Positions 2,474 to 49,449 of a DNA stretch of 64,000 nt are shown in pieces (position 1 is the stretch's first letter; each line of letters opens with the position of its first letter). The notes beneath the pieces were generated by a model. It was not told the DNA's origin and did no database searches. It saw only the letters and a list, made by a program, of their open reading frames with translations. The position numbers and the translations under genes are program-made. This DNA comes from Escherichia coli (GTDB lineage Bacteria; Pseudomonadota; Gammaproteobacteria; Enterobacterales; Enterobacteriaceae). The DNA is taken from the NCBI RefSeq assembly GCF_003790525.1, contig NZ_CP033636.1; one strand, 5' to 3'.

Positions 2474-2847
2474 AACAATGTGTTAGGGAAGTATCTTGCC
2501 ATTAAAAATATTAAAAAGGTGACTTGATGAAACCATTTGGACTTGCCGGAAAACCCCGGCCCGAACCTTGCGGCTGCTGCTGGTATACCCGTGAGGACTG
2601 CCCTTACGTCAGCGCAAAATAGATCTATCGCCGCAGGCAGCGCAAGGCAGAACGCCAGCGTCAGCGCAGCACCATTGTGATGGCCGTTTCTGAATTTCGC
2701 TGACTTCTTCTGGAAATATCATTTTTTCTCCAGAAGAATTTTAAAATAAAGGGAAATCTCTTCACGGGTATCTGATGTTTATTGTTTATGGTAAATTGCG
2801 CCACATTAATTTTTGTGGCGCAGTTCGTGTTGGCTTAAGGATATAAT

Positions 2848-3129
2848 ATGAAAATCAGCCAGCTGGAATCCGGGATGCAGGTTTGGTCTGTAACCCGTAC
2901 CAAAATGGGAAATACCACCATTACAACGGTCATTGTCCACCCCGTTGTCATTATAGAAATTCATGATAATCATGTGATTGCTCGCTGGAACGGCAATGCA
3001 CCACGTCGTTTTGGAGAAACGGCTATCAGGGGCTGGAAGAAGGAGAAGCCCCTGCTTGTCCGTGAACCTTTCGGAAATGCTCGCCTGGCCACCCGGGCTG
3101 AAAAAGCCGCTATGCAGGAAAAAGAGTAA
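2848..3129 (+). CDS. hypothetical protein (93 aa)
   Basis: ORF track; AAGGA RBS; inverted repeat CTTCTGGA-N14-TCCAGAAG lies upstream at about 2706-2737. Confidence 0.4.
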   Translation: MKISQLESGMQVWSVTRTKMGNTTITTVIVHPVVIIEIHDNHVIARWNGNAPRRFGETAIRGWKKEKPLLVREPFGNARLATRAEKAAMQEKE

Positions 3130-3344
3130 TACCCCTTTTAGCATCCACAATTTCAACGTCCATCTGCCTTTAACCTTGCCTGTTAATAACGGAATCCTTT
3201 CTGACTGGCCGGATCCCACGCATAACCTGAACTGTTGGCTAACCGTCTTACAGCCAAATTCCCTCCTTTATCTGGCAGGAGTGCGTCCGTGAGCTCTGTA
3301 TGATCTACGTGTTTGTTCAGTAGAGCACATAACAGGAGTGGGGT

Positions 3345-3950
3345 ATGACTGAATTAAATAAAAGCCCGTCCGGTTTTTCCGGAGCTGATGTCAGTAAAGA
3401 ACAGGCTGCCATAAGGGCACTTGTAGAAAGAGTAGTGACCAACTATCGCAGCCGGACAGCACCTGATCGGGTTCAAAAGGCTTCGGTAGCGTTTAATGGG
3501 GGATTAATCCTGACCCTGATGCTGGCCTTGTCGCTATTGGGCTACCTTGTGGCGGAATTGTTCAGGGGGTATGTTGCGGATAGTTCACCCTATGTGCCTG
3601 GTCTAAGTTATTCGCAATTTTCGATGCTGATGATCGTTGAGCTGTGTCTATGCTTTCTCGCATGGTTTTTGGTTGTCACAGGGGACTATCCCCGGCCGTG
3701 GATATTTCAGGTAGTCCCGATGGAGCAGTACTGGTTCTTTGACGAAGTGGATGACGACGATCTTGCCCGGCTTTCCTGTAACCCTTACATCAAGCGCTGG
3801 CTACTTGATGAAATGTCCGGTATTCATCGACTGACCTACACGAGGCTGCATGATCGACTGGAGCGCATCTGTAATATTCCATCCCATCTCGAATACAGCC
3901 GTATTCAGGCACATAAGCTTTCCCTAATCAACGGAACCAGTGCCTCCTGA
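3345..3950 (+). CDS. hypothetical membrane protein (201 aa)
   Basis: ORF track; AGGAG RBS; two long hydrophobic segments. Confidence 0.45.
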   Translation: MTELNKSPSGFSGADVSKEQAAIRALVERVVTNYRSRTAPDRVQKASVAFNGGLILTLMLALSLLGYLVAELFRGYVADSSPYVPGLSYSQFSMLMIVELCLCFLAWFLVVTGDYPRPWIFQVVPMEQYWFFDEVDDDDLARLSCNPYIKRWLLDEMSGIHRLTYTRLHDRLERICNIPSHLEYSRIQAHKLSLINGTSAS

Positions 3951-22388: not shown

Positions 22389-25300
22389 TATAGGTTCCCA
22401 GCCTCTTTCAGGTTATTGATAATTCGTTCAATGTCCACTTTCGCCCGGTCTGATGCGGCCAGCAAAGTAGGCATGTTAAATGCATGGCATTTTGTATTGA
22501 TCACAGCACCAGAATTAACGAGGTACTGAGGAAGCTTATTGAAAAGATCTTGAGCCTCTAACTGCGACCCAAATTTTTCCACGCAAGATTGGGTCAGATA
22601 GAGAGTATTAGGAGTACTTACCATAAATCTGTTTTTGCGCTTTCTTTTAAACGCCACCTCCATTTTGGACAGAATTTGATGCAGTACTGACGCAATTTCT
22701 ACAAATTCAAGCTCTGTAACGTCACCTTCGCTTATAAGCGAGAATTCACCATTTTGGTCTGATTCAGTAGTTGCAAAGACTTTACTGTTCAGATTGTGAC
22801 CAGAAACAGGTGATGCTGGTTTTTGTACTTCTGCTTTGTCCGATGATTTATTCCGGTTGCGCTTGGGATTTTGTTTTTCTACCGGTGCTGTTGGGGCGAA
22901 CAGTCTGGCCAGTGCTGGCGAAAGATGATGCCCCTTAGCGTCTGTGGGCGCATGCTCTCCATTTGATTCTTCAAGTACAGGAGGTAAGGCGGGCTCTTCA
23001 CTTGCCATCACACTGGTTGCGGCTGCTTCGGTCTGGGAATACACAACTTCAGCTGGTGGTGGGCAGTTACCCTCAGTATCTGGTTCTGAGTTTTCTTGTC
23101 CTACAGAAACATCCATAGAGCGTTCAATCGTACCCTGGGGATCAGCGTTCTGTTCTCGGTTAAGTTCTGGTAATTCTGACGGCTCGGGGAGAAGCTTTTC
23201 ATTATGGACCGAAGAGCTTGTTGCACAACTACCGACTTCTGGCCGAGAAACACTAAGCTGTGTGAAATCGGTATAATCAATGATCTCATGCTCTTCATCT
23301 TCTTCCTCAAAAAGATGTTGATAATGTTCATATTCCACAGCCTCAGTTTTCAGCGGACCAGTCGCGGATGCACTATCGGTTCCATGATATTCCACGTCGC
23401 CAGAATGTTCTTCGACTGCATTTACACGTGGGGGAGGCAGCTCAAGCGTTTGCTTTGGACGTGGGGCAGAGTTTTCAACAGAAGACTCATCATTAATCAC
23501 TAATGCCTGATACATAGAAGTATTGAAAAGTGACTTTAAAGTTGTTGGCCTTCTTGGCTCATGATAGGTGAGCTGGAACCCGGCGCAGTTATCGCCGAGC
23601 TGGACTAAACGCAGATCGTCAATGTCCCTTACTATCCACATTCCATCGAGAGAGCCTTCTCTGAATGTCAGTTGGAAATAGGGCTCTTCACTAAATGCTT
23701 TTTCATCTAATCCCGGCAGCAATGCCATAGTGGCATCTATGTTGAGGTAGGGGACAGCATCTACACACACTATATAGTCATTGGAAAGTGGAGCGCTTAA
23801 AAGGAGTTCATGAAGTTGGTTGACCAGGACATGGGATTCCGTGTCCTTTGCCGATTCATCTTCACTTTCTTCTATATCAGGAATGACAGGATCAGCTGCT
23901 TCCTCACCCTCAGATTTAACTATCTGCGTGTCATTATCAATTTCATTATCACTTTCGGCTTTCTTCTCAAAATCGTCGGATGAGCCTTCATTTTTCTTAG
24001 AATGTATATCAACATCAATAGAGGCAGTGGAGCGGCCTAAATCATTAACCTTAAGAACAGCCGTCTCAACAGTATCAGTAATTTTAGTTATAGCGTCCCG
24101 ACCGGGCACTGGTCTTCTGTATTCAGTAACTGTTTTTTGCTCGTCAATGTAAATAAAGTCTTTATTGGCATTAACGCTAAAAAGACCCGGCACTGAGTCA
24201 GGGATTTTATAGGAATCAAAGATTAAACCAATCCACCTTAGCTTAAGAAGGTTATAGAATTCTAGTTTCCCTATCCCATTTCTAAAGATGTTTGATATTT
24301 CGTTTTCCGAATAGATACCCGGAATGAAGTAGTGAACGACACGCTCATCATCATAGGGCTCGACGTAACCACGTTGAACTAGGGATTCTACCAATACCGT
24401 CTTACCAGCCTCTCCCTGAGGGAAGTTATATTTATGTAATTCGAAATCATTGAGAACAAAATCAAGGAATGCGTTCTCGTTAAGGTATACCTCACCATTT
24501 ACGATAATGATGTGCATAGGCTTAGCATTGTAATTGTTGATATTGATACTGGTAAAGTTGTGCTTGATGGTACTAATGGCCCTTGCTGCTGCATCATTAG
24601 AACGCAGACCCATGATAGGGTCACGTAAAACATTAAGGTCTGTACCAGTAGAATAGAAATCAGCGGTCCTCACGCATTTAGACAAAAAGTCATTCCCATC
24701 AGTATAAACGTTTAGGGCGGTGATCATTTTTGAATAAACACGTTCTTTATTTACCCGATCCAAAAATGCAAGACATACCGGGTTTAGGATTCGCTCAAGG
24801 AAAACGCTGGACCAGATATTATGTTGATTATGAATACGCTTTCGCCAGTGGATTTCGTATTCAACCACGTCATTTTCACGTGCCCAGTCAAGAAGACTTT
24901 GTGAGCTTGGCGTCCAAATGATCGGACTAGCTAAATTCAGGCTTACAATATCGAGATCGTAAACCTTTCCGGCATCATGGACTAAACCACAGATAAACGC
25001 AGCATAGAGATATACTTTTCTACGGACTACTTCTTCATCTTGATATCCGATTGGTCTCAGTTCTGAGTGATGCGCATTTTTTAAAGAGAGTATGGCCACT
25101 TCCAGGCTGTGAGAAAGTAACCCACCAATACCATTATGATGATGATTTTCGGAAGCTGGCAAAAGATGTATCCAGCGAACATATTCAACCAAGGGCTTTA
25201 ATACTAAATTAGTAAATGTATATGCATCGTCCCTGATGTCGCTATCGCTGATAGCTAACATCATTGAAATTGAGTGCAGCTTTTCCCGATACAGAGACAG

Positions 25301-41751: not shown

Positions 41752-42363
41752 TCAGTTCCAGGGGATCACTGCAACATAATTTCCGGAACGCAGCGGCGCA
41801 TCAAATTTATCAGTAAAGGCGTCGATCATTGCTGAATAAGCAATGCTGTCTGACGGCACAGGTGCATTGCTTTGCATACTCACTTTCAGAACCTGCTTTG
41901 CTCCTTTCGCTGACGGGTATACCTCGACATCCAGCTGTCGCATATAGTGCATCTGCGACATCGTCTCAGTGCCTATTACCCCATCGACCGGCCTGTAGTC
42001 ATAGTCAGTATGCGATTCGCCATGCTTGTCAGTTCTCGTTGTCTTTTTATCTACAACGTAGCCTGTCACCCCAGTAAGAAGCTGCTCGCTATACTGCATG
42101 TTCTCCTGTGAGCTGCTCATTCGGAACCTGAGCACATAATCTGGCTGGTGAGTGGAAATAATGACTCCTTTTTTTGCTAATCCATCAGCAAAACGGCCTG
42201 AAAACATTCTGGACTGAATACTTTCGTCCGGAGGGACTATCTGAAACCTTTTATTTGTAACAGGACGAGGCATTAGATCGTACGCATCTACCTGGTTTGC
42301 GAAATGATATCCACAACCACTCAAAAGCATTGCGGTTGTGAGTATAAAGCCCTGCCTAATCAT
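41752..42363 (-). CDS. lipoprotein (203 aa)
   Basis: Signal peptide with lipobox LLSGC. Confidence 0.45.
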   Translation of the reverse strand: MIRQGFILTTAMLLSGCGYHFANQVDAYDLMPRPVTNKRFQIVPPDESIQSRMFSGRFADGLAKKGVIISTHQPDYVLRFRMSSSQENMQYSEQLLTGVTGYVVDKKTTRTDKHGESHTDYDYRPVDGVIGTETMSQMHYMRQLDVEVYPSAKGAKQVLKVSMQSNAPVPSDSIAYSAMIDAFTDKFDAPLRSGNYVAVIPWN

Positions 42364-42469: not shown

Positions 42470-43279
42470 ATGTCTAAAGAATTTTATTTAAAACCGATGG
42501 CCACGATTTTAATTTCTGCGGTAATTGCTACCGCTGCCTCGGCGTTAATCGCGGCAACTTATTTTAAACCGAAGGTGCTCAGTGAGGAAGAAATTGGCAA
42601 AATTGCCGCTACTTACCTGGTAAAAAATCCCCATTATTTAGTGGAAGCAGGTAAGGCGCTGGAAAATCAGAACGTAAGTGCCTCAGTGGAACGAATAATT
42701 CCATATGCGCCAGCTCTGCTGGATACCAAGGAGACGCCAAACATCGGCCCGGATGACGCCGACGTCGCGGTAATCGAGTTCTTCGACTATCAGTGTATTT
42801 ACTGCATGCGGGTTACACCTGTTGTTGAATCGGTAATGAATCAGAGCAAAGATGTAAAATTCTTCTTTAAAGAATTCCCGATTTTTGCCGGTTCAAAACC
42901 TGTATCTGCCATGGGGGCCGCTACGGGTCTGCACGTCTATCAGAATTTCGGTGCTGAAGCCTATCGTAAATACCACAACAACCTGATGGCTGTGGCTCAT
43001 ACCTTCATGACCTCTCAACGCAAATTCGAACTCAGCGACTTTAATACTGTGGTGGATAAGTCAGGGTTTAACAGCACGTTTTCTGACAGGGAAAAAAACC
43101 GATATGAAAACGTGATCTCCGGCAACATGCAGCTGGGCGAAGCGCTTGGGATCACCGGCACACCCGGCTTCATCATTATGAATATGAAAAAGCCGAATGC
43201 GGCGACTACCACATTTATCCCCGGGGCTATGGACGCAGCAACTTTGCAGGGCGCAATCGAAAAAGCTCGCGGGGCCTAA
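42470..43279 (+). CDS. DsbA-like thioredoxin-fold oxidoreductase with CxxC (269 aa)
   Basis: N-terminal hydrophobic segment; FFDYQCIYCMRV active-site context; stop embedded in AAAGTTACTTT motif. Confidence 0.55.
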   Translation: MSKEFYLKPMATILISAVIATAASALIAATYFKPKVLSEEEIGKIAATYLVKNPHYLVEAGKALENQNVSASVERIIPYAPALLDTKETPNIGPDDADVAVIEFFDYQCIYCMRVTPVVESVMNQSKDVKFFFKEFPIFAGSKPVSAMGAATGLHVYQNFGAEAYRKYHNNLMAVAHTFMTSQRKFELSDFNTVVDKSGFNSTFSDREKNRYENVISGNMQLGEALGITGTPGFIIMNMKKPNAATTTFIPGAMDAATLQGAIEKARGA

Positions 43280-43324
43280 AGTTACTTTCACTTTTGATGA
43301 GTACGGCCATGCCGGTCATGGCCG

Positions 43325-44584
43325 CTACGCTTTTACAACGAGTAATTCATCCCAGCGGGTCGTATATCTCGGTGATAGCATGGCCTGTTTCATACGAAAA
43401 TCCTGTTGAATGCCTTCCCCCAGCAAAAACAGAGCTCCGCGCTTTTCTTTATTGAACCGGTCCATAACTTTCATCAGTGCCTGACTGCCAGGCCTGGCCG
43501 GGCGCTCATCAAACAGGCTGAGTTGCTCTGTGCCGTCAGTCATAGCGGAGAGCATTACCCCAGCTTTCGCATACGCTATCCCGGGTTTGTAAATGCGGTT
43601 CAGGATGGTCATGGCTGCATCAACCAGATCGCGGGTGTCCTGTGTAGCGGTAAGCGGCTCGATACCACAATTGCTGTAGCGGTTTTCACCTTGCGCATAA
43701 TTGCTGCTCTGAATGAAGACTGTGATTTGACGGGTCCACGAGCCATCCTTGCGCAGCTGCTCTGCCGCCCGGGCGGTAAAAAATGAAACTGCCTCATGTA
43801 GCTTGCCTATCTCATTAAGGCGCTGACCAAAACTTCTGGAAACGATAATCTGTTGCCGGACAGGAGGGGATTCATGCAGCCGGAAACATGGTTCGCCATG
43901 CAGTTCCCGCCAGGTACGCTCGATTTCAACGCCAAAGCTTTTACGTAAAAAGCGAACGTCGCTATTATAAAAATCACCGGCAGTGATGATCCCGAAAGCC
44001 GACAGGCGTTCACTGATCTTTTGACCAATACCCCATATTTCTCTGGTACTGATAAGGCCCAGGAGCTTCCTGATCCTGGCCTGATCAGTCAAAACTACAA
44101 CCCCGCCTGTAGCTGCCCATCGTTTGCTCGCATAGGTGCATAATTTAGCCAGGGTTTTGGTGCTTGAACACCCCACACCACAGGTAAGGGACAGATTATG
44201 AAGAAGTGTACTTCTGATCAACCGGCCGTAATCTTCATAATCTATTATCTTGTTCATGTTTTTCAATAACATGAAATTTTCATCTATGCTATATCGACTC
44301 GATTGAGGCGCGAAGCTTTCCAGCGTTTCATGGAAGCGATTTGAGTAGTCTTCATACAAAGTAAAGTTAGAGCTCCGGACTTCGATCTGGTGTTGCTGAA
44401 TCAAATCCCTGCACTTAAAAATTGGGGTCCCACGCTTAATACCAACGCTTTTAGCCAGTTTATTCATTGCAATGACGGACGAATCGTTATTGCTGGCTAT
44501 GATGAGCGGCTTTTTTGCCAGCTTGGGATCCATCGCACACTCAAATGCCGCATAGGCCCCGTTAATATCAACGTGCATGTACAT
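43325..44584 (-). CDS. umuC: Y-family DNA polymerase subunit (UmuC/MucB-like, 419 aa)
   Basis: N-terminal DINGAYAAFE and SIDENF motifs correspond to UmuC catalytic Asp/Glu region; overlaps umuD-like stop. Confidence 0.6.
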   Translation of the reverse strand: MYMHVDINGAYAAFECAMDPKLAKKPLIIASNNDSSVIAMNKLAKSVGIKRGTPIFKCRDLIQQHQIEVRSSNFTLYEDYSNRFHETLESFAPQSSRYSIDENFMLLKNMNKIIDYEDYGRLIRSTLLHNLSLTCGVGCSSTKTLAKLCTYASKRWAATGGVVVLTDQARIRKLLGLISTREIWGIGQKISERLSAFGIITAGDFYNSDVRFLRKSFGVEIERTWRELHGEPCFRLHESPPVRQQIIVSRSFGQRLNEIGKLHEAVSFFTARAAEQLRKDGSWTRQITVFIQSSNYAQGENRYSNCGIEPLTATQDTRDLVDAAMTILNRIYKPGIAYAKAGVMLSAMTDGTEQLSLFDERPARPGSQALMKVMDRFNKEKRGALFLLGEGIQQDFRMKQAMLSPRYTTRWDELLVVKA

Positions 44585-45002
44585 GGCTAAACTGATTCAG
44601 TGCAAAGGTGACGACGCCCCATATCTCAAGGGATTCGGGATTTACACGTATCGGCTTATAGGCTGGATTAGAAGGCATCAAAAGCAGCTCAGGATACGTG
44701 TGTAAGATCTTTACCGTGAACTCTCCATCCACCAGCGCAACGACGATAGAGCCGTGTCGTGCCGTTAAAGACCGATCCACAACCAGAATAGCGCCATCAT
44801 TGATACCGGCATTGATCATACTGAGGCCCGCCGCCCTGACAAAGAAGGTTGAGGGGCGGTTACGGACTACATATTCATGCAAATTTAATTCATTATCTTC
44901 ATGCCCGGCGCACGGACTCATCACTCCACAGCTCAGTAAATCACTGAAAAAAGGTGCCATTTCGTAAGGCTTGTTGCTAATGTGCTCAAGGATAACAGAC
45001 AT
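44568..45002 (-). CDS. umuD: UmuD/MucA-like S24 peptidase-fold mutagenesis protein (144 aa)
   Basis: AAGLSMINAGI (Ser nucleophile context) and later Lys; LexA box upstream. Confidence 0.6.
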   Translation of the reverse strand: MSVILEHISNKPYEMAPFFSDLLSCGVMSPCAGHEDNELNLHEYVVRNRPSTFFVRAAGLSMINAGINDGAILVVDRSLTARHGSIVVALVDGEFTVKILHTYPELLLMPSNPAYKPIRVNPESLEIWGVVTFALNQFSHVHAR

Positions 45003-45023
45003 AGCTACACTCGAATTCTCATA

Positions 45024-45039
45024 CTGTATGTATAAACAG
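45024..45039. promoter_or_regulatory. LexA (SOS) box CTGTATGTATAAACAG upstream of umuD-like gene
   Basis: Perfect CTGT-N8-ACAG, 22 bp upstream of the start codon. Confidence 0.7.
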
Positions 45040-45195
45040 TATTGCGAGTTACAGAGAAAAGATCAAATCTCTCCGGTAACGCTATCGAGCCTGACGAAAA
45101 ATTAAGCTTTGTCACAAACACCAAAAACCATCTTTTACCGATAATGGCGAGCTGGCCTACGAAGAAGGTATACAAGCTAGGATGAAAGGATTCTG

Positions 45196-45813
45196 ATGCC
45201 CCTCCCACCAAATTTTTTATCTCCTGAAGACCAGGCTGAGTACGATGCTTATATGTCAAGATTCAGCGAGATAAATCACTATTATGATTATCACACTGTC
45301 CCCGTGATTGACTGGTTCTTTAAACAAGCAACCGAGGCGTTGCATCACGAACTATGGATACCGGCCTGTACGAGCTTCCTGAACGGGATTGAAACATCAC
45401 TCATGGTTACGTTGAAGTCGCTGATGCTGAAACCAACAGTTAACGATCAGCATGCAGCTCCTGAGCTGGTGGACTTGGAGGGTATCTCCGTAATGAGTAA
45501 TGCCTTACTGAGAAAGGCCAAGCAGGAAGGGGTGCCGGTAGAATTACTTTCATTTCCAGCCGAGCAGGATATGTTGGTTAAGGTAGCAGCCGGGAGAACA
45601 CCTGAAGCAGAAATTGTCAGGCTGAGAAACAACCTATGCCATGGCAACATTCTGGAGTTTATCATGTCTGTTGATATCGGTACTTCAGGACCCATACGTA
45701 TTTTTACGCCTGAATGCTGTCGTGAACTGGCGCATGAACTTTCGTCCATTTCCAGGAATTGGGTGGTAGGTTTGCACAAGTACTGGGTCGACAACAATCT
45801 GATTTCCCCCTGA
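45196..45813 (+). CDS. hypothetical protein (205 aa)
   Basis: ORF track. Confidence 0.4.
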   Translation: MPLPPNFLSPEDQAEYDAYMSRFSEINHYYDYHTVPVIDWFFKQATEALHHELWIPACTSFLNGIETSLMVTLKSLMLKPTVNDQHAAPELVDLEGISVMSNALLRKAKQEGVPVELLSFPAEQDMLVKVAAGRTPEAEIVRLRNNLCHGNILEFIMSVDIGTSGPIRIFTPECCRELAHELSSISRNWVVGLHKYWVDNNLISP

Positions 45814-46713: not shown

Positions 46714-47533
46714 GGCACTGTTGCAAATAGTCGGTGGTGATAAACTTATCATCCCCTTTTGCTGATGGAGCTGCACATGAACCCATTCAAAGGCCGGCAT
46801 TTTCAGCGTGACATCATTCTGTGGGCCGTACGCTGGTACTGCAAATACGGCATCAGTTACCGTGAGCTGCAGGAGATGCTGGCTGAACGCGGAGTGAATG
46901 TCGATCACTCCACGATTTACCGCTGGGTTCAGCGTTATGCGCCTGAAATGGAAAAACGGCTGCGCTGGTACTGGCGTAACCCTTCCGATCTTTGCCCGTG
47001 GCACATGGATGAAACCTACGTGAAGGTCAATGGCCGCTGGGCGTATCTGTACCGGGCCGTCGACAGCCGGGGCCGCACTGTCGATTTTTATCTCTCCTCC
47101 CGTCGTAACAGCAAAGCTGCATACCGGTTTCTGGGTAAAATCCTCAACAACGTGAAGAAGTGGCAGATCCCACGATTCATCAACACGGATAAAGCGCCCG
47201 CCTATGGTCGCGCGCTTGCTCTGCTCAAACGCGAAGGCCGGTGCCCGTCTGACGTTGAACACCGACAGATTAAGTACCGGAACAACGTGATTGAATGCGA
47301 TCATGGCAAACTGAAACGGATAATCAACGCCACGCTGGGATTTAAATCCATGAAGACGGCTTACGCCACCATCAAAGGTATTGAGGTGATGCGTGCACTA
47401 CGCAAAGGCCAGGCCTCAGCATTTTATTATGGTGATCCCCTGGGCGAAATGCGCCTGGTAAGCAGAGTTTTTGAAATGTAAGGCCTTTGAATAAGACAAA
47501 AGGCTGCCTCATCGCTAACTTTGCAACAGTGCC
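46714..47533 (+). mobile_element. IS26 (820 bp), no flanking 8-bp target duplication
   Basis: 14-bp terminal repeats GGCACTGTTGCAAA / TTTGCAACAGTGCC; flanks CTTTGCGT versus GGCGAAGC differ. Confidence 0.95.
46777..47481 (+). CDS. tnpA: IS26 transposase Tnp26 (234 aa)
   Basis: MNPFKGRHFQRDIILWAVRWYCKYGISYRELQEM... recognised IS26 transposase. Confidence 0.95.
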   Translation: MNPFKGRHFQRDIILWAVRWYCKYGISYRELQEMLAERGVNVDHSTIYRWVQRYAPEMEKRLRWYWRNPSDLCPWHMDETYVKVNGRWAYLYRAVDSRGRTVDFYLSSRRNSKAAYRFLGKILNNVKKWQIPRFINTDKAPAYGRALALLKREGRCPSDVEHRQIKYRNNVIECDHGKLKRIINATLGFKSMKTAYATIKGIEVMRALRKGQASAFYYGDPLGEMRLVSRVFEM

Positions 47534-48367: not shown

Positions 48368-49381
48368 CTACCTCTCACTAGTGAGGGGCGGCAGCGCATC
48401 AAGCGGTGAGCGCACTCCGGCACCGCCAACTTTCAGCACATGCGTGTAAATCATCGTCGTAGAGACGTCGGAATGGCCGAGCAGATCCTGCACGGTTCGA
48501 ATGTCGTAACCGCTGCGGAGCAAGGCCGTCGCGAACGAGTGGCGGAGGGTGTGCGGTGTGGCGGGCTTCGTGATGCCTGCTTGTTCTACGGCACGTTTGA
48601 AGGCGCGCTGAAAGGTCTGGTCATACATGTGATGGCGACGCACGACACCGCTCCGTGGATCGGTCGAATGCGTGTGCTGCGCAAAAACCCAGAACCACGG
48701 CCAGGAATGCCCGGCGCGCGGATACTTCCGCTCAAGGGCGTCGGGAAGCGCAACGCCGCTGCGGCCCTCGGCCTGGTCCTTCAGCCACCATGCCCGTGCA
48801 CGCGACAGCTGCTCGCGCAGGCTGGGTGCCAAGCTCTCGGGTAACATCAAGGCCCGATCCTTGGAGCCCTTGCCCTCCCGCACGATGATCGTGCCGTGAT
48901 CGAAATCCAGATCCTTGACCCGCAGTTGCAAACCCTCACTGATCCGCATGCCCGTTCCATACAGAAGCTGGGCGAACAAACGATGCTCGCCTTCCAGAAA
49001 ACCGAGGATGCGAACCACTTCATCCGGGGTCAGCACCACCGGCAAGCGCCGCGACGGCCGAGGTCTTCCGATCTCCTGAAGCCAGGGCAGATCCGTGCAC
49101 AGCACCTTGCCGTAGAAGAACAGCAAGGCCGCCAATGCCTGACGATGCGTGGAGACCGAAACCTTGCGCTCGTTCGCCAGCCAGGACAGAAATGCCTCGA
49201 CTTCGCTGCTGCCCAAGGTTGCCGGGTGACGCACACCGTGGAAACGGATGAAGGCACGAACCCAGTGGACATAAGCCTGTTCGGTTCGTAAACTGTAATG
49301 CAAGTAGCGTATGCGCTCACGCAACTGGTCCAGAACCTTGACCGAACGCAGCGGTGGTAACGGCGCAGTGGCGGTTTTCAT
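48368..49381 (-). CDS. intI1: class 1 integron integrase IntI1 (337 aa)
   Basis: [53 protein letters not shown]... recognised IntI1. Confidence 0.95.
49266..49294 (+). promoter_or_regulatory. integron cassette promoter Pc, variant with -35 TGGACA and -10 TAAACT (PcH1-type); P2 lacks GGG insertion
   Basis: TGGACA-N17-TAAACT inside the intI1 5-prime region; downstream TTGTTA-N14-TACAGT has the inactive 14-bp spacing. Confidence 0.7.
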
Positions 49382-49449
49382 GGCTTGTTATGACTGTTTT
49401 TTTGTACAGTCTATGCCTCGAGCATCCAAGCAGCAAGCGCGTTACGCCG

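Follow-up and report, generated by a model that had tools for sequence, protein, structure and literature searches.

A probable SOS-controlled DNA polymerase V operon of the IncHI2 plasmid backbone, with an atypical N-terminal motif in its UmuC-like polymerase

A preliminary description of a 64-kb stretch of Escherichia coli plasmid DNA (the whole of which we refer to as the window) pointed to an SOS-controlled, umuDC-like mutagenesis operon whose polymerase departs from the usual UmuC sequence near its N-terminus. This raises the question of whether the locus encodes a complete DNA polymerase V under damage control and, if so, whether the unusual motif sets its product apart from other enzymes of this type. 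We consider it likely, with a probability of roughly 0.85, that the locus is the umuDC (DNA polymerase V) operon of the IncHI2 plasmid backbone and that it works by the SOS mechanism proposed below. Its span, 43325-45039, is bounded exactly by the umuC stop codon on one side and by the last base of the LexA operator core on the other, and the features referred to in the text are as follows.

44568..45002, minus strand: umuD-like gene, 144 aa, with a Peptidase_S24 match and alignment with UmuD and MucA
43325..44584, minus strand: umuC-like gene, 419 aa, Y-family polymerase with a DUF4113 C-terminal domain
44568..44584, minus strand: overlap of the umuD stop and the umuC start, 17 nt
45022..45041: LexA operator (SOS box) TACTGTATGTATAAACAGTA, from a 20-mer consensus match and footprint; binding is predicted
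45061..45066, minus strand: putative -35 element TTGATC, from the comparative footprint
45038..45043, minus strand: putative -10 element AATACT, 17 nt after the -35 element and overlapping the LexA operator
43304..43324: hairpin CGGCCATG-CCGGT-CATGGCCG, with a perfect 8-bp GC-rich stem

The initial claim of a UmuD-like gene overlapping a Y-family polymerase gene holds up, as the genes share 17 nt and the Pfam and NCBIfam models agree on their identities; an overlap of this kind may well couple their translation. The product of the first gene, listed in RefSeq as WP_000111290.1 and named umuD, matches Peptidase_S24 in Pfam (PF00717, 2e-24) and scores 129.8 bits against NCBIfam model PRK10276, for which the cut-off is 110. 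Membership of the HumD family (NCBIfam NF051876) was considered and rejected, the protein reaching 69.3 bits there, under the cut-off of 120. Its Cys25-Gly26, Ser61 and Lys98 align with C24-G25, S60 and K97 of UmuD, and the cleavage site, serine and lysine align with those of MucA as well. The second product (WP_042634445.1, named umuC in RefSeq) begins with MYMHVDINGAYAAFE and contains the Pfam domains IMS, IMS_C and DUF4113 (3.9e-31, 3.2e-20 and 1.8e-17, respectively, all above the gathering scores), and it scores 464.7 bits against NCBIfam PRK03609 with a cut-off of 431. Judged by these comparisons, the protein is to be placed in the UmuC subfamily of Y-family polymerases, as a putative pol V catalytic subunit. 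We rejected a pol IV (DinB) identity: all pol IV models give 68-121 bits against cut-offs of 256-399 (120.7 versus 399 for the best of them), identity to E. coli DinB is only 22%, and a UmuD-like partner gene is present here. An AF2 model of the protein (pLDDT 87.8) finds its best solved-fold matches among folds of the DinB/Dpo4/pol kappa type, i.e. within the Y-family; the sequence-search matches comprised DinB, Dpo4, iota and kappa homologues only, with no solved UmuC structure among them.

The preliminary description had raised the possibility that the catalytic acidic residues might be missing, and they are all retained: D6, D101 and E102 occupy alignment columns that do not vary among 146-150 diverse relatives. 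The protein also has a steric gate residue, Y11, at a position occupied by tyrosine in 119 of 146 relatives and by phenylalanine in 27, and a clamp motif, QLSLF, at residues 354-358, aligned with QLNLF of UmuC. The likeness to E. coli umuDC extends to the whole operon, which has the same gene order (the S24 autoproteolytic subunit first, then a Y-family polymerase with a DUF4113 tail), the same Cys-Gly cleavage site and Ser/Lys dyad, the D6/D101/E102, Y11 and QLxLF residues in common, and a TTGATC -35 element, a LexA operator lying over the -10 element and 19 nt from operator to ATG, as here. The two nevertheless differ in that the polymerases share 47.8% identity, the IncHI2 enzyme has A10/A13/F14 and R70 where E. 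coli UmuC has F10/S13/C14 and F70, the genes overlap by 17 nt rather than 1 nt, and the IncHI2 operon is plasmid-borne and adjoins dsbA/dsbC-like backbone genes while E. coli umuDC is chromosomal.

Two other related systems are, like this one, carried on plasmids. The mucAB operon of R46/pKM101 (IncN, pol RI) is LexA-boxed, has a -10 element, GATACT, fused to its operator (GATACTG), shows an overlap of 13 nt between mucA and mucB compared to 17 nt here, and encodes a polymerase that likewise lacks phenylalanine at position 10 (M10). However, MucB falls together with P0024 and the IncL/M protein in the tree (100% bootstrap) and the IncH clade stands separately (also 100%), so that orthology with MucAB was rejected. 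The label 'mucAB' for the IncHI2 operon is one of functional analogy rather than orthology, because identity to MucB is 45.3%, the clades are separate and the UmuD-like protein has a Cys-Gly cleavage site, as in UmuD, where MucA has Ala-Gly. Operons of the impCAB type (IncK2/Z pNVI1292, I-complex) also encode a UmuD/UmuC-type pair, with 43.7% identity to the IncHI2 protein at the polymerase, but they possess an extra DinI-like first gene that has no counterpart upstream of the IncHI2 operon.

The suggestion that the polymerase belongs to a divergent subgroup is borne out by the tree of UmuC-like proteins, in which an IncH clade with 67-100% internal identity and 100% bootstrap lies outside the UmuC, MucB and ImpB-type proteins, to which it has 44-48% identity. 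Within this clade are the umuD/polymerase pair of IncHI1 (pHCM1), at 84% identity, and three more distant IncH-type homologues recovered from assemblies (L005-L007), at 67-72%. All four share synteny with dsbA, lipoprotein and dsbC-like genes, the promoter and operator layout and the A10/F14 signature seen here. In IncHI1, by contrast, the operator is a symmetric CTGG...CCAG variant, and in L005-L007 the two genes do not overlap, umuD stopping immediately short of umuC. The IncH enzyme forms a branch of its own and seems never to have been characterised.

Control by LexA was predicted from what was called a perfect LexA box 22 bp upstream of the UmuD-like gene. We graded the operator by counting its mismatches, both to the consensus and to the operator of E. 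coli umuDC. The CTGT-N8-ACAG core (45024-45039) is perfect, as claimed, whereas the full 20-mer carries two mismatches to TACTG(TA)5CAGTA, both in the central spacer, and agrees with the E. coli umuDC operator at 18 of 20 positions, differing at 2/20. Its upstream location is likewise correct, with the distance off by one: 21 nt separate the core, and 19 nt the 20-mer, from the ATG (45002). With up to 3 mismatches allowed, no other site in the 64-kb window matches the 20-mer consensus, and 100 shuffles gave an expectation of 0; weaker evidence comes from the bare CTGT-N8-ACAG pattern, which is present four times where 0.81 would be expected.

Further evidence for SOS control, as first proposed, comes from a footprint of five IncH-type upstream regions (IncHI2, IncHI1 and the three more distant homologues). 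The conserved blocks upstream of umuD are limited to TTTGATCTTT, GATACTG and CAGT, with variable spacers between them; the -35 block TTTGATCTTT is invariant in 5/5 regions, and TACTG-N10-CAGT occupies the same position in all five loci, the upstream DNA being otherwise unalignable. The operator and the -35/-10 elements are in other words the sole conserved upstream blocks, in a layout that matches umuDC and mucAB, and this comparison supports LexA control of the operon. The -10 hexamer reads AATACT here and GATACT in the relatives. Since a simple consensus promoter scan did not report the umuDC promoter, its assignment rests on the comparative footprint. At the other end of the operon, the same type of scan for promoters and terminators found no convincing terminator for umuC. 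The hairpin at 43304..43324 (-18.3 kcal/mol, z -2.9 on the minus strand) lies directly 3' of the umuC stop codon, between umuC and a convergent dsbA-like gene, and could possibly serve as a terminator shared by both; termination of umuDC there is uncertain because a U-run follows the hairpin on the plus strand only.

It could be supposed that the genes are a decaying remnant and that the LexA-like palindrome is a chance match. The surplus of the bare core pattern in the window would fit such a reading, as would the truncated umuC found in some IncHI2 plasmids (H85, 40% coverage). We nonetheless hold it to be very improbable and rejected both the pseudogene and the chance-palindrome parts of it. 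Both open reading frames are full length, hundreds of plasmids carry them in identical form, no catalytic or processing residue has been lost, and the unique 20-mer keeps its position in five homologues. Moreover, pN is far below pS: between IncHI2 and IncHI1 umuC, pN is 0.097 and pS is 0.765, these being raw values, as saturation of the synonymous sites (pS 0.77-0.85) makes the Jukes-Cantor dS uncomputable for most umuC pairs. For umuD, dN/dS is 0.06. Both genes are under strong purifying selection across IncHI1, IncHI2 and the more distant relatives.

Taking E. coli umuDC and R46 mucAB as homologous models, we propose the following mechanism for the IncHI2 operon. Host LexA would bind the operator at 45022-45041 and, because this overlaps the -10 element, would block the TTGATC-17-AATACT promoter. 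DNA damage or incoming single-stranded DNA would give rise to RecA filaments and hence to self-cleavage of LexA, upon which the two translationally coupled genes would be expressed. The 144-aa UmuD-like protein would cut itself at Cys25-Gly26 by means of Ser61/Lys98, and the dimer of its shortened form would bind the 419-aa UmuC-like polymerase. Together with a RecA-ATP subunit and the beta clamp (through QLSLF), this complex is predicted to copy across lesions with low fidelity, and such bypass may increase both survival and mutation supply in plasmid-carrying cells. That LexA binds, that cleavage depends on RecA and that the IncHI2 pol V has translesion or mutagenic activity is what we infer from these two systems.

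An intact operon might still be effectively cryptic in its native plasmid, with repression so tight or translation so poor that its contribution to host mutagenesis, on top of that of chromosomal umuDC, is small or nil; the 250-kb plasmid might then keep it for occasional damage tolerance of its own, e.g. after conjugative entry. We regard this as unlikely. Operons of this type can be kept almost silent by the mobile elements on which they naturally reside: rumAB of R391 is suppressed by CroS and is a potent mutator only when taken out of its native context (PMC8460599). The operator here is near consensus, as is that of E. coli umuDC, which is tightly repressed; read from the sequence, the Shine-Dalgarno sequences of the umuD-like and umuC-like genes are both weak, which would favour poor translation; and umuDC is already present in hosts such as E. 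coli and Salmonella. Against these points stand the strong purifying selection on both genes throughout the IncHI1, IncHI2 and more distant loci and the conserved promoter, which speaks for expression being important. Nor did the neighbouring genes include an identifiable extra plasmid-borne repressor adjoining the operon; the divergent 205-aa open reading frame upstream has no Pfam match.

The feature that first drew attention to the polymerase, its atypical N-terminal motif, is real. DINGAYAAFE, with A10, A13 and F14, departs from the typical D-[VC]-N-x-F-Y-A-S-C-E, in which F10, S13 and C14 are usual UmuC features rather than catalytic residues. Position 10 is phenylalanine in 134/146 relatives (92%), position 13 serine in 137/146 and position 14 cysteine in 135/146 (92%). 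The residues at positions 10 and 14 change together: among 146 diverse relatives, all five representatives with A10 have F, M or W at position 14, compared to 0/141 of the others, and none of the five A10 proteins has another A10 protein as its nearest neighbour, F10/C14 or M10/C14 proteins being closer in each case. Within the IncH clade, all full-length members examined have both A10 and F14 (P0003 lacks its N-terminal residues and is therefore outside this tally). The alignment points to DINGAYAAFE being a lineage-specific, size-compensated swap, F10 to A with C14 to F, beside the steric gate Y11. The case for pairing residues 10 and 14 is one of covariation, to which a helix predicted by the AF2 model at residues 12-18 lends support. 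The motif does not indicate loss of function, and apart from this seemingly size-compensated swap the operon is ordinary.

Could the swap nonetheless alter the enzyme? A10 could change its behaviour because position 10 matters for pol V: UmuC F10L shows higher fidelity, lower mutagenesis in vivo and markedly altered sugar selectivity (PMC3401427). If A10 and F14 reshaped the pocket behind Y11, the IncH-clade polymerase would be a functionally altered pol V whose sugar discrimination or base-substitution fidelity is shifted relative to the E. coli enzyme, and both the prevalence of F10 among diverse relatives and the fixation of A10/F14 in the clade would agree with this. Yet the perfect coupling of A10 to a bulky residue 14 in apparently separate lineages is what is expected if packing and function are preserved, and MucB, a very active mutagenic polymerase, has M10, so that F10 is not obligatory. 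On balance, functional alteration seems rather improbable to us, and it is equally doubtful that IncH pol V is a natural variant of the steric-gate neighbourhood with selectivity or fidelity measurably unlike that of E. coli pol V. If it were, IncHI2 plasmids, the leading carriers of mcr-1, ESBL and oqxAB, and IncHI1 plasmids, those of typhoid multidrug resistance, would bring a distinct SOS mutator of their own to every host, and the A10/F14 swap, in at least three lineages, would represent a recurrent evolutionary solution.

Returning to the more probable reading of the locus as the ordinary pol V operon of the IncHI2 backbone, its location on a plasmid, already stated in the preliminary description, is confirmed and can be specified as conjugative and IncHI2. 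The operon DNA is 100% identical to that of IncHI2 plasmids and is found in 945 plasmid records, with the genes annotated as umuD and umuC in RefSeq; it occurs in 229 of 5426 complete E. coli genomes (about 4%), where plasmids account for 228 of the 232 matching places. Because the operon is already annotated and papers list an IncHI2 'mucAB/umuCD' system, it is already known and is not a discovery. These papers name it 'mucAB' or 'umuCD' from sequence, some calling it a stabilisation function, and in the searchable literature we found sequence-based mentions of the IncH enzyme only, with no UV-protection or mutagenesis phenotype or experiment. What is worth keeping is the separate IncH branch and the coupled A10/F14 change at a position that tunes pol V fidelity. 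Multidrug resistance is spread to a large extent by IncHI2 and IncHI1 plasmids, and a class 1 integron integrase under SOS control lies in the same 64-kb window. A single plasmid could thus respond to antibiotic-induced DNA damage with both cassette shuffling and error-prone synthesis, an idea that is established for mucAB, rumAB and intI1 and to which the IncHI2 locus adds no new concept.

The feature in this window is an operon, already annotated, from the backbone of a very common plasmid family; it resembles the textbook system, and only two points about it are mildly new, namely the distinct branch formed by the IncH proteins and a coupled swap at residues 10 and 14 (A10/F14) of the UmuC-like protein. 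The operon and two neighbouring genes are laid out as follows:

42470-43279, convergent with umuC: dsbA-like gene
43325..44584, minus strand: UmuC-like ORF, 419 aa, N-terminus MYMHVDINGAYAAFE
44568..45002, minus strand: UmuD-like ORF, 144 aa
45022-45041, upstream of the UmuD-like ORF: LexA operator TACTGTATGTATAAACAGTA, a consensus match
48368-49381, minus strand: intI1, class 1 integron integrase gene

Both minus-strand ORFs were found and share 17 nt, in line with the preliminary description, which had read the locus as a UmuD-like gene overlapping a Y-family polymerase gene. The 419-aa protein carries IMS, IMS_C and DUF4113 domains and scores 464.7 bits against the NCBIfam UmuC subfamily model (cut-off 431); a pol IV identity was rejected, as all pol IV models fell far under their cut-offs. 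AlphaFold, given a 56-sequence alignment, yielded a confident model (pLDDT 87.8) whose best-matching solved structures are DinB, Dpo4, pol kappa and pol iota, and a PDB sequence search returned only DinB-, Dpo4-, iota- and kappa-type chains and no UmuC chain. All three catalytic acids, D6, D101 and E102, whose absence was named beforehand as refuting the reading, are there, and 146-150 diverse relatives show no variation at these positions. The steric gate at position 11 is Y (Y or F across all relatives), and a clamp-binding motif, QLSLF, lies at residues 354-358. The 144-aa protein is a Peptidase_S24 member (UmuD subfamily model, 129.8 against a cut-off of 110) which, aligned with UmuD and MucA, keeps the Cys25-Gly26 cleavage site, the nucleophile Ser61 and the general base Lys98.

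The LexA box reported earlier is present, although it is perfect only in its CTGT-N8-ACAG core; the 20-mer differs from TACTG(TA)5CAGTA at two positions, both central. The distance to the ATG is 19 nt from the 20-mer and 21 nt from the core, one less than the 22 bp first given. It is the sole site with three or fewer mismatches to the 20-mer consensus in the 64-kb window, and shuffles gave 0. The bare CTGT-N8-ACAG pattern is less specific, with 4 sites in the window against 0.81 expected; further matches at 22888-22903 and 41846-41861, the latter inside a 203-aa ORF (41752-42363), have GC-rich spacers and more than three mismatches to the 20-mer, and were set aside as probably chance matches.

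We compared four homologous loci, that of the IncHI1 plasmid pHCM1 (L004) and three from assemblies (L005-L007) with polymerases 67-72% identical and the same dsbA/lipoprotein/dsbC synteny. Their umuD-upstream regions are unalignable apart from a footprint found in all, consisting of TTTGATCTTT, a variable 17-nt spacer, (G/A)ATACTG, an AT-rich 10 nt and CAGT, which clearly reads as the -35 and -10 elements of a promoter plus a LexA operator that overlaps the latter. The same arrangement recurs in E. coli umuDC (TTGATC-17-TACTGT, with the operator placed alike and likewise 19 nt from the ATG), its operator differing from that of the window at 2 of 20 positions, and R46 mucAB has GATACTGTATAAATAAACAGT at the corresponding promoter/operator. 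Because the footprint is conserved and these two layouts are alike, control of the operon by LexA, which would bind at this operator, is strongly supported by sequence. The pHCM1 operator (L004 3545-3564) is TACTGGTTAAATATCCAGTA, a symmetric CTGG...CCAG variant; since its half-sites carry mirror-image changes (CTGT to CTGG and ACAG to CCAG), the palindrome appears to have been kept under selection.

Comparison of IncHI2 with IncHI1 umuC gave pN 0.097 and pS 0.765, dN/dS was 0.06 for umuD and, between L005 and L007, 0.054 for umuC, and these values point to strong purifying selection on both genes, which argues against a decaying remnant. Truncated copies do exist on a few plasmids, and at least one IncHI2 plasmid (NZ_MW509820.1, our match H85) has lost all but the first 40% of umuC, beside an intact umuD, consistent with resistance-region insertions eroding umuC in some lineages. 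As an account of the operon in this window, a pseudogene with a chance-match box is contradicted.

Many conjugative plasmids of 210-300 kb from Salmonella, E. coli, Enterobacter and Klebsiella carry the 2-kb region at 100% identity, and there are 945 matching plasmid records in total (512 at ≥99% identity). The operon is carried by 229 of 5426 complete E. coli genomes, where 228 of 232 matching places are on plasmids. On the best match, pSTM6-275 (IncHI2A/MOBH/MPF_F), RefSeq names the genes umuD (WP_000111290.1) and umuC (WP_042634445.1); they are flanked by a DsbA-family gene and a hypothetical gene, with an IS26/class 1 integron resistance region about 1.7 kb away. In the IncHI2 literature umuC serves as a map landmark at which the MDR region is described as beginning (PMC9599605), 'mucAB' is listed as a PCR-detected backbone module for 'mutagenesis induction' or 'stabilisation' (PMC4855149; PMC6206278), and 'ultraviolet light protection' is among the genes common to IncHI1, IncHI2 and IncHI3 (preprint 10.1101/334409). 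Given this annotation and these mentions, the locus is already known; the literature searched yielded no experimental study of the IncH enzyme.

The gene identity, the intact residues, the conservation of operator and promoter, the purifying selection and the location on a plasmid that we observed are best explained by the standard pol V circuit, all of whose biochemistry we infer. LexA would repress the operon until RecA filaments led to LexA cleavage and induction; the UmuD-like protein would then cleave itself at Cys25-Gly26 and enter a UmuD'2C-type complex that, with RecA-ATP as its activator and the beta clamp as its tether, would perform error-prone lesion bypass. It is plausible, and not exclusive of this circuit, that the operon is hardly expressed in its native setting, in the manner of rumAB in R391 (PMC8460599).

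Database homologues of the UmuC-like protein form a tight series at 100, 84, 78, 72, 71 and 67% identity; beyond it, identity drops straight to ≤51%. Plasmid records number 933 at ≥95% identity (IncHI2) and 212 at 80-90%, two of which were examined and are IncHI1-type, pHCM1-like; the remainder are all below 60%. The preliminary description had proposed a phylogeny against MucB, ImpB, RulB and SamB; our neighbour-joining tree, rooted on DinB, covers MucB and an ImpB-type protein from that list. The IncH proteins form one clade with 100% bootstrap, outside a grouping of E. coli UmuC, MucB, ImpB-type, IncL/M and other proteins that is weak (47% bootstrap). Identity between the window protein and the members of that grouping is 44-48%, against 51-59% among those members themselves, and clustering at 50% reduces the entire clade to 1 representative among 2117 relatives (E <1e-30). 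Judged by sequence, the IncH proteins are thus the divergent subgroup proposed earlier, and the preliminary description, its observation confirmed, was essentially correct in observation and interpretation alike. Orthology with MucAB is unsupported by identity and tree, so the literature label 'mucAB' denotes functional analogy only.

Within the motif DINGAYAAFE, positions 10 and 14 were tallied over 146 diverse representatives:

Position 10: A in the UmuC-like protein; relatives F 134, A 5, C 4, M 3
Position 14: F in the UmuC-like protein; relatives C 135, A 4, F 2, V 2, M 2, W 1

Position 14 is F, M or W in all five A10 proteins and in none of the 141 others (naive Fisher p ~2e-9, hand-computed with phylogeny ignored). 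The five are only 32-39% identical pairwise, the nearest neighbours of each are F10/C14 or M10/C14 proteins, and they occupy at least three separate places in a rough tree. In the AlphaFold model a helix is predicted at 12-18, with residue 14 in its first turn and residue 10 just ahead of the helix; the bulky residue 14 may fill the space left by F10 behind the steric gate Y11, preserving the pocket. Since the F10L substitution in UmuC increases both sugar selectivity and fidelity and reduces mutagenesis (PMC3401427), and MucB naturally has M10, it is possible that A10/F14 gives the IncH enzyme altered fidelity or sugar selectivity.

Around the operon, an IS26 transposase gene (46759-47481) about 1.7 kb upstream of umuD opens a resistance region, noted here as far as ~48400, which on the matching plasmid comprises sul1/qacEdelta1/aadA2/dfrA12/intI1. 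A second LexA-type site, CTGTTTTTTTGTACAG, lies at 49394-49409, 13 nt upstream of intI1, and we take it to be the published SOS control of that gene; because of this site the window holds two SOS-controlled functions, polymerase and integrase, ~4.4 kb apart. In the 45-nt gap between umuC and the convergent dsbA-like gene, a perfect 8-bp GC-rich hairpin (43304-43324; -18.3 kcal/mol, z -2.9) looks like the dsbA terminator, as the U-run is on the plus strand only, and may be shared with umuC. Divergent from umuD is a 205-aa ORF (45196-45813, plus strand) with no Pfam match; pHCM1 has a hypothetical gene of nearly equal length in the corresponding position, and another gene takes this place in the more distant IncH-type loci. 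In L006, the most distant clade member, the full-length 139-aa umuD frame is present from 3580 (the gene caller's late start gave 77 aa), and immediately upstream lies an SRAP gene (SOS-response-associated peptidase, YedK-like; 2763-3431), which would add a second function tied to DNA damage at this site.
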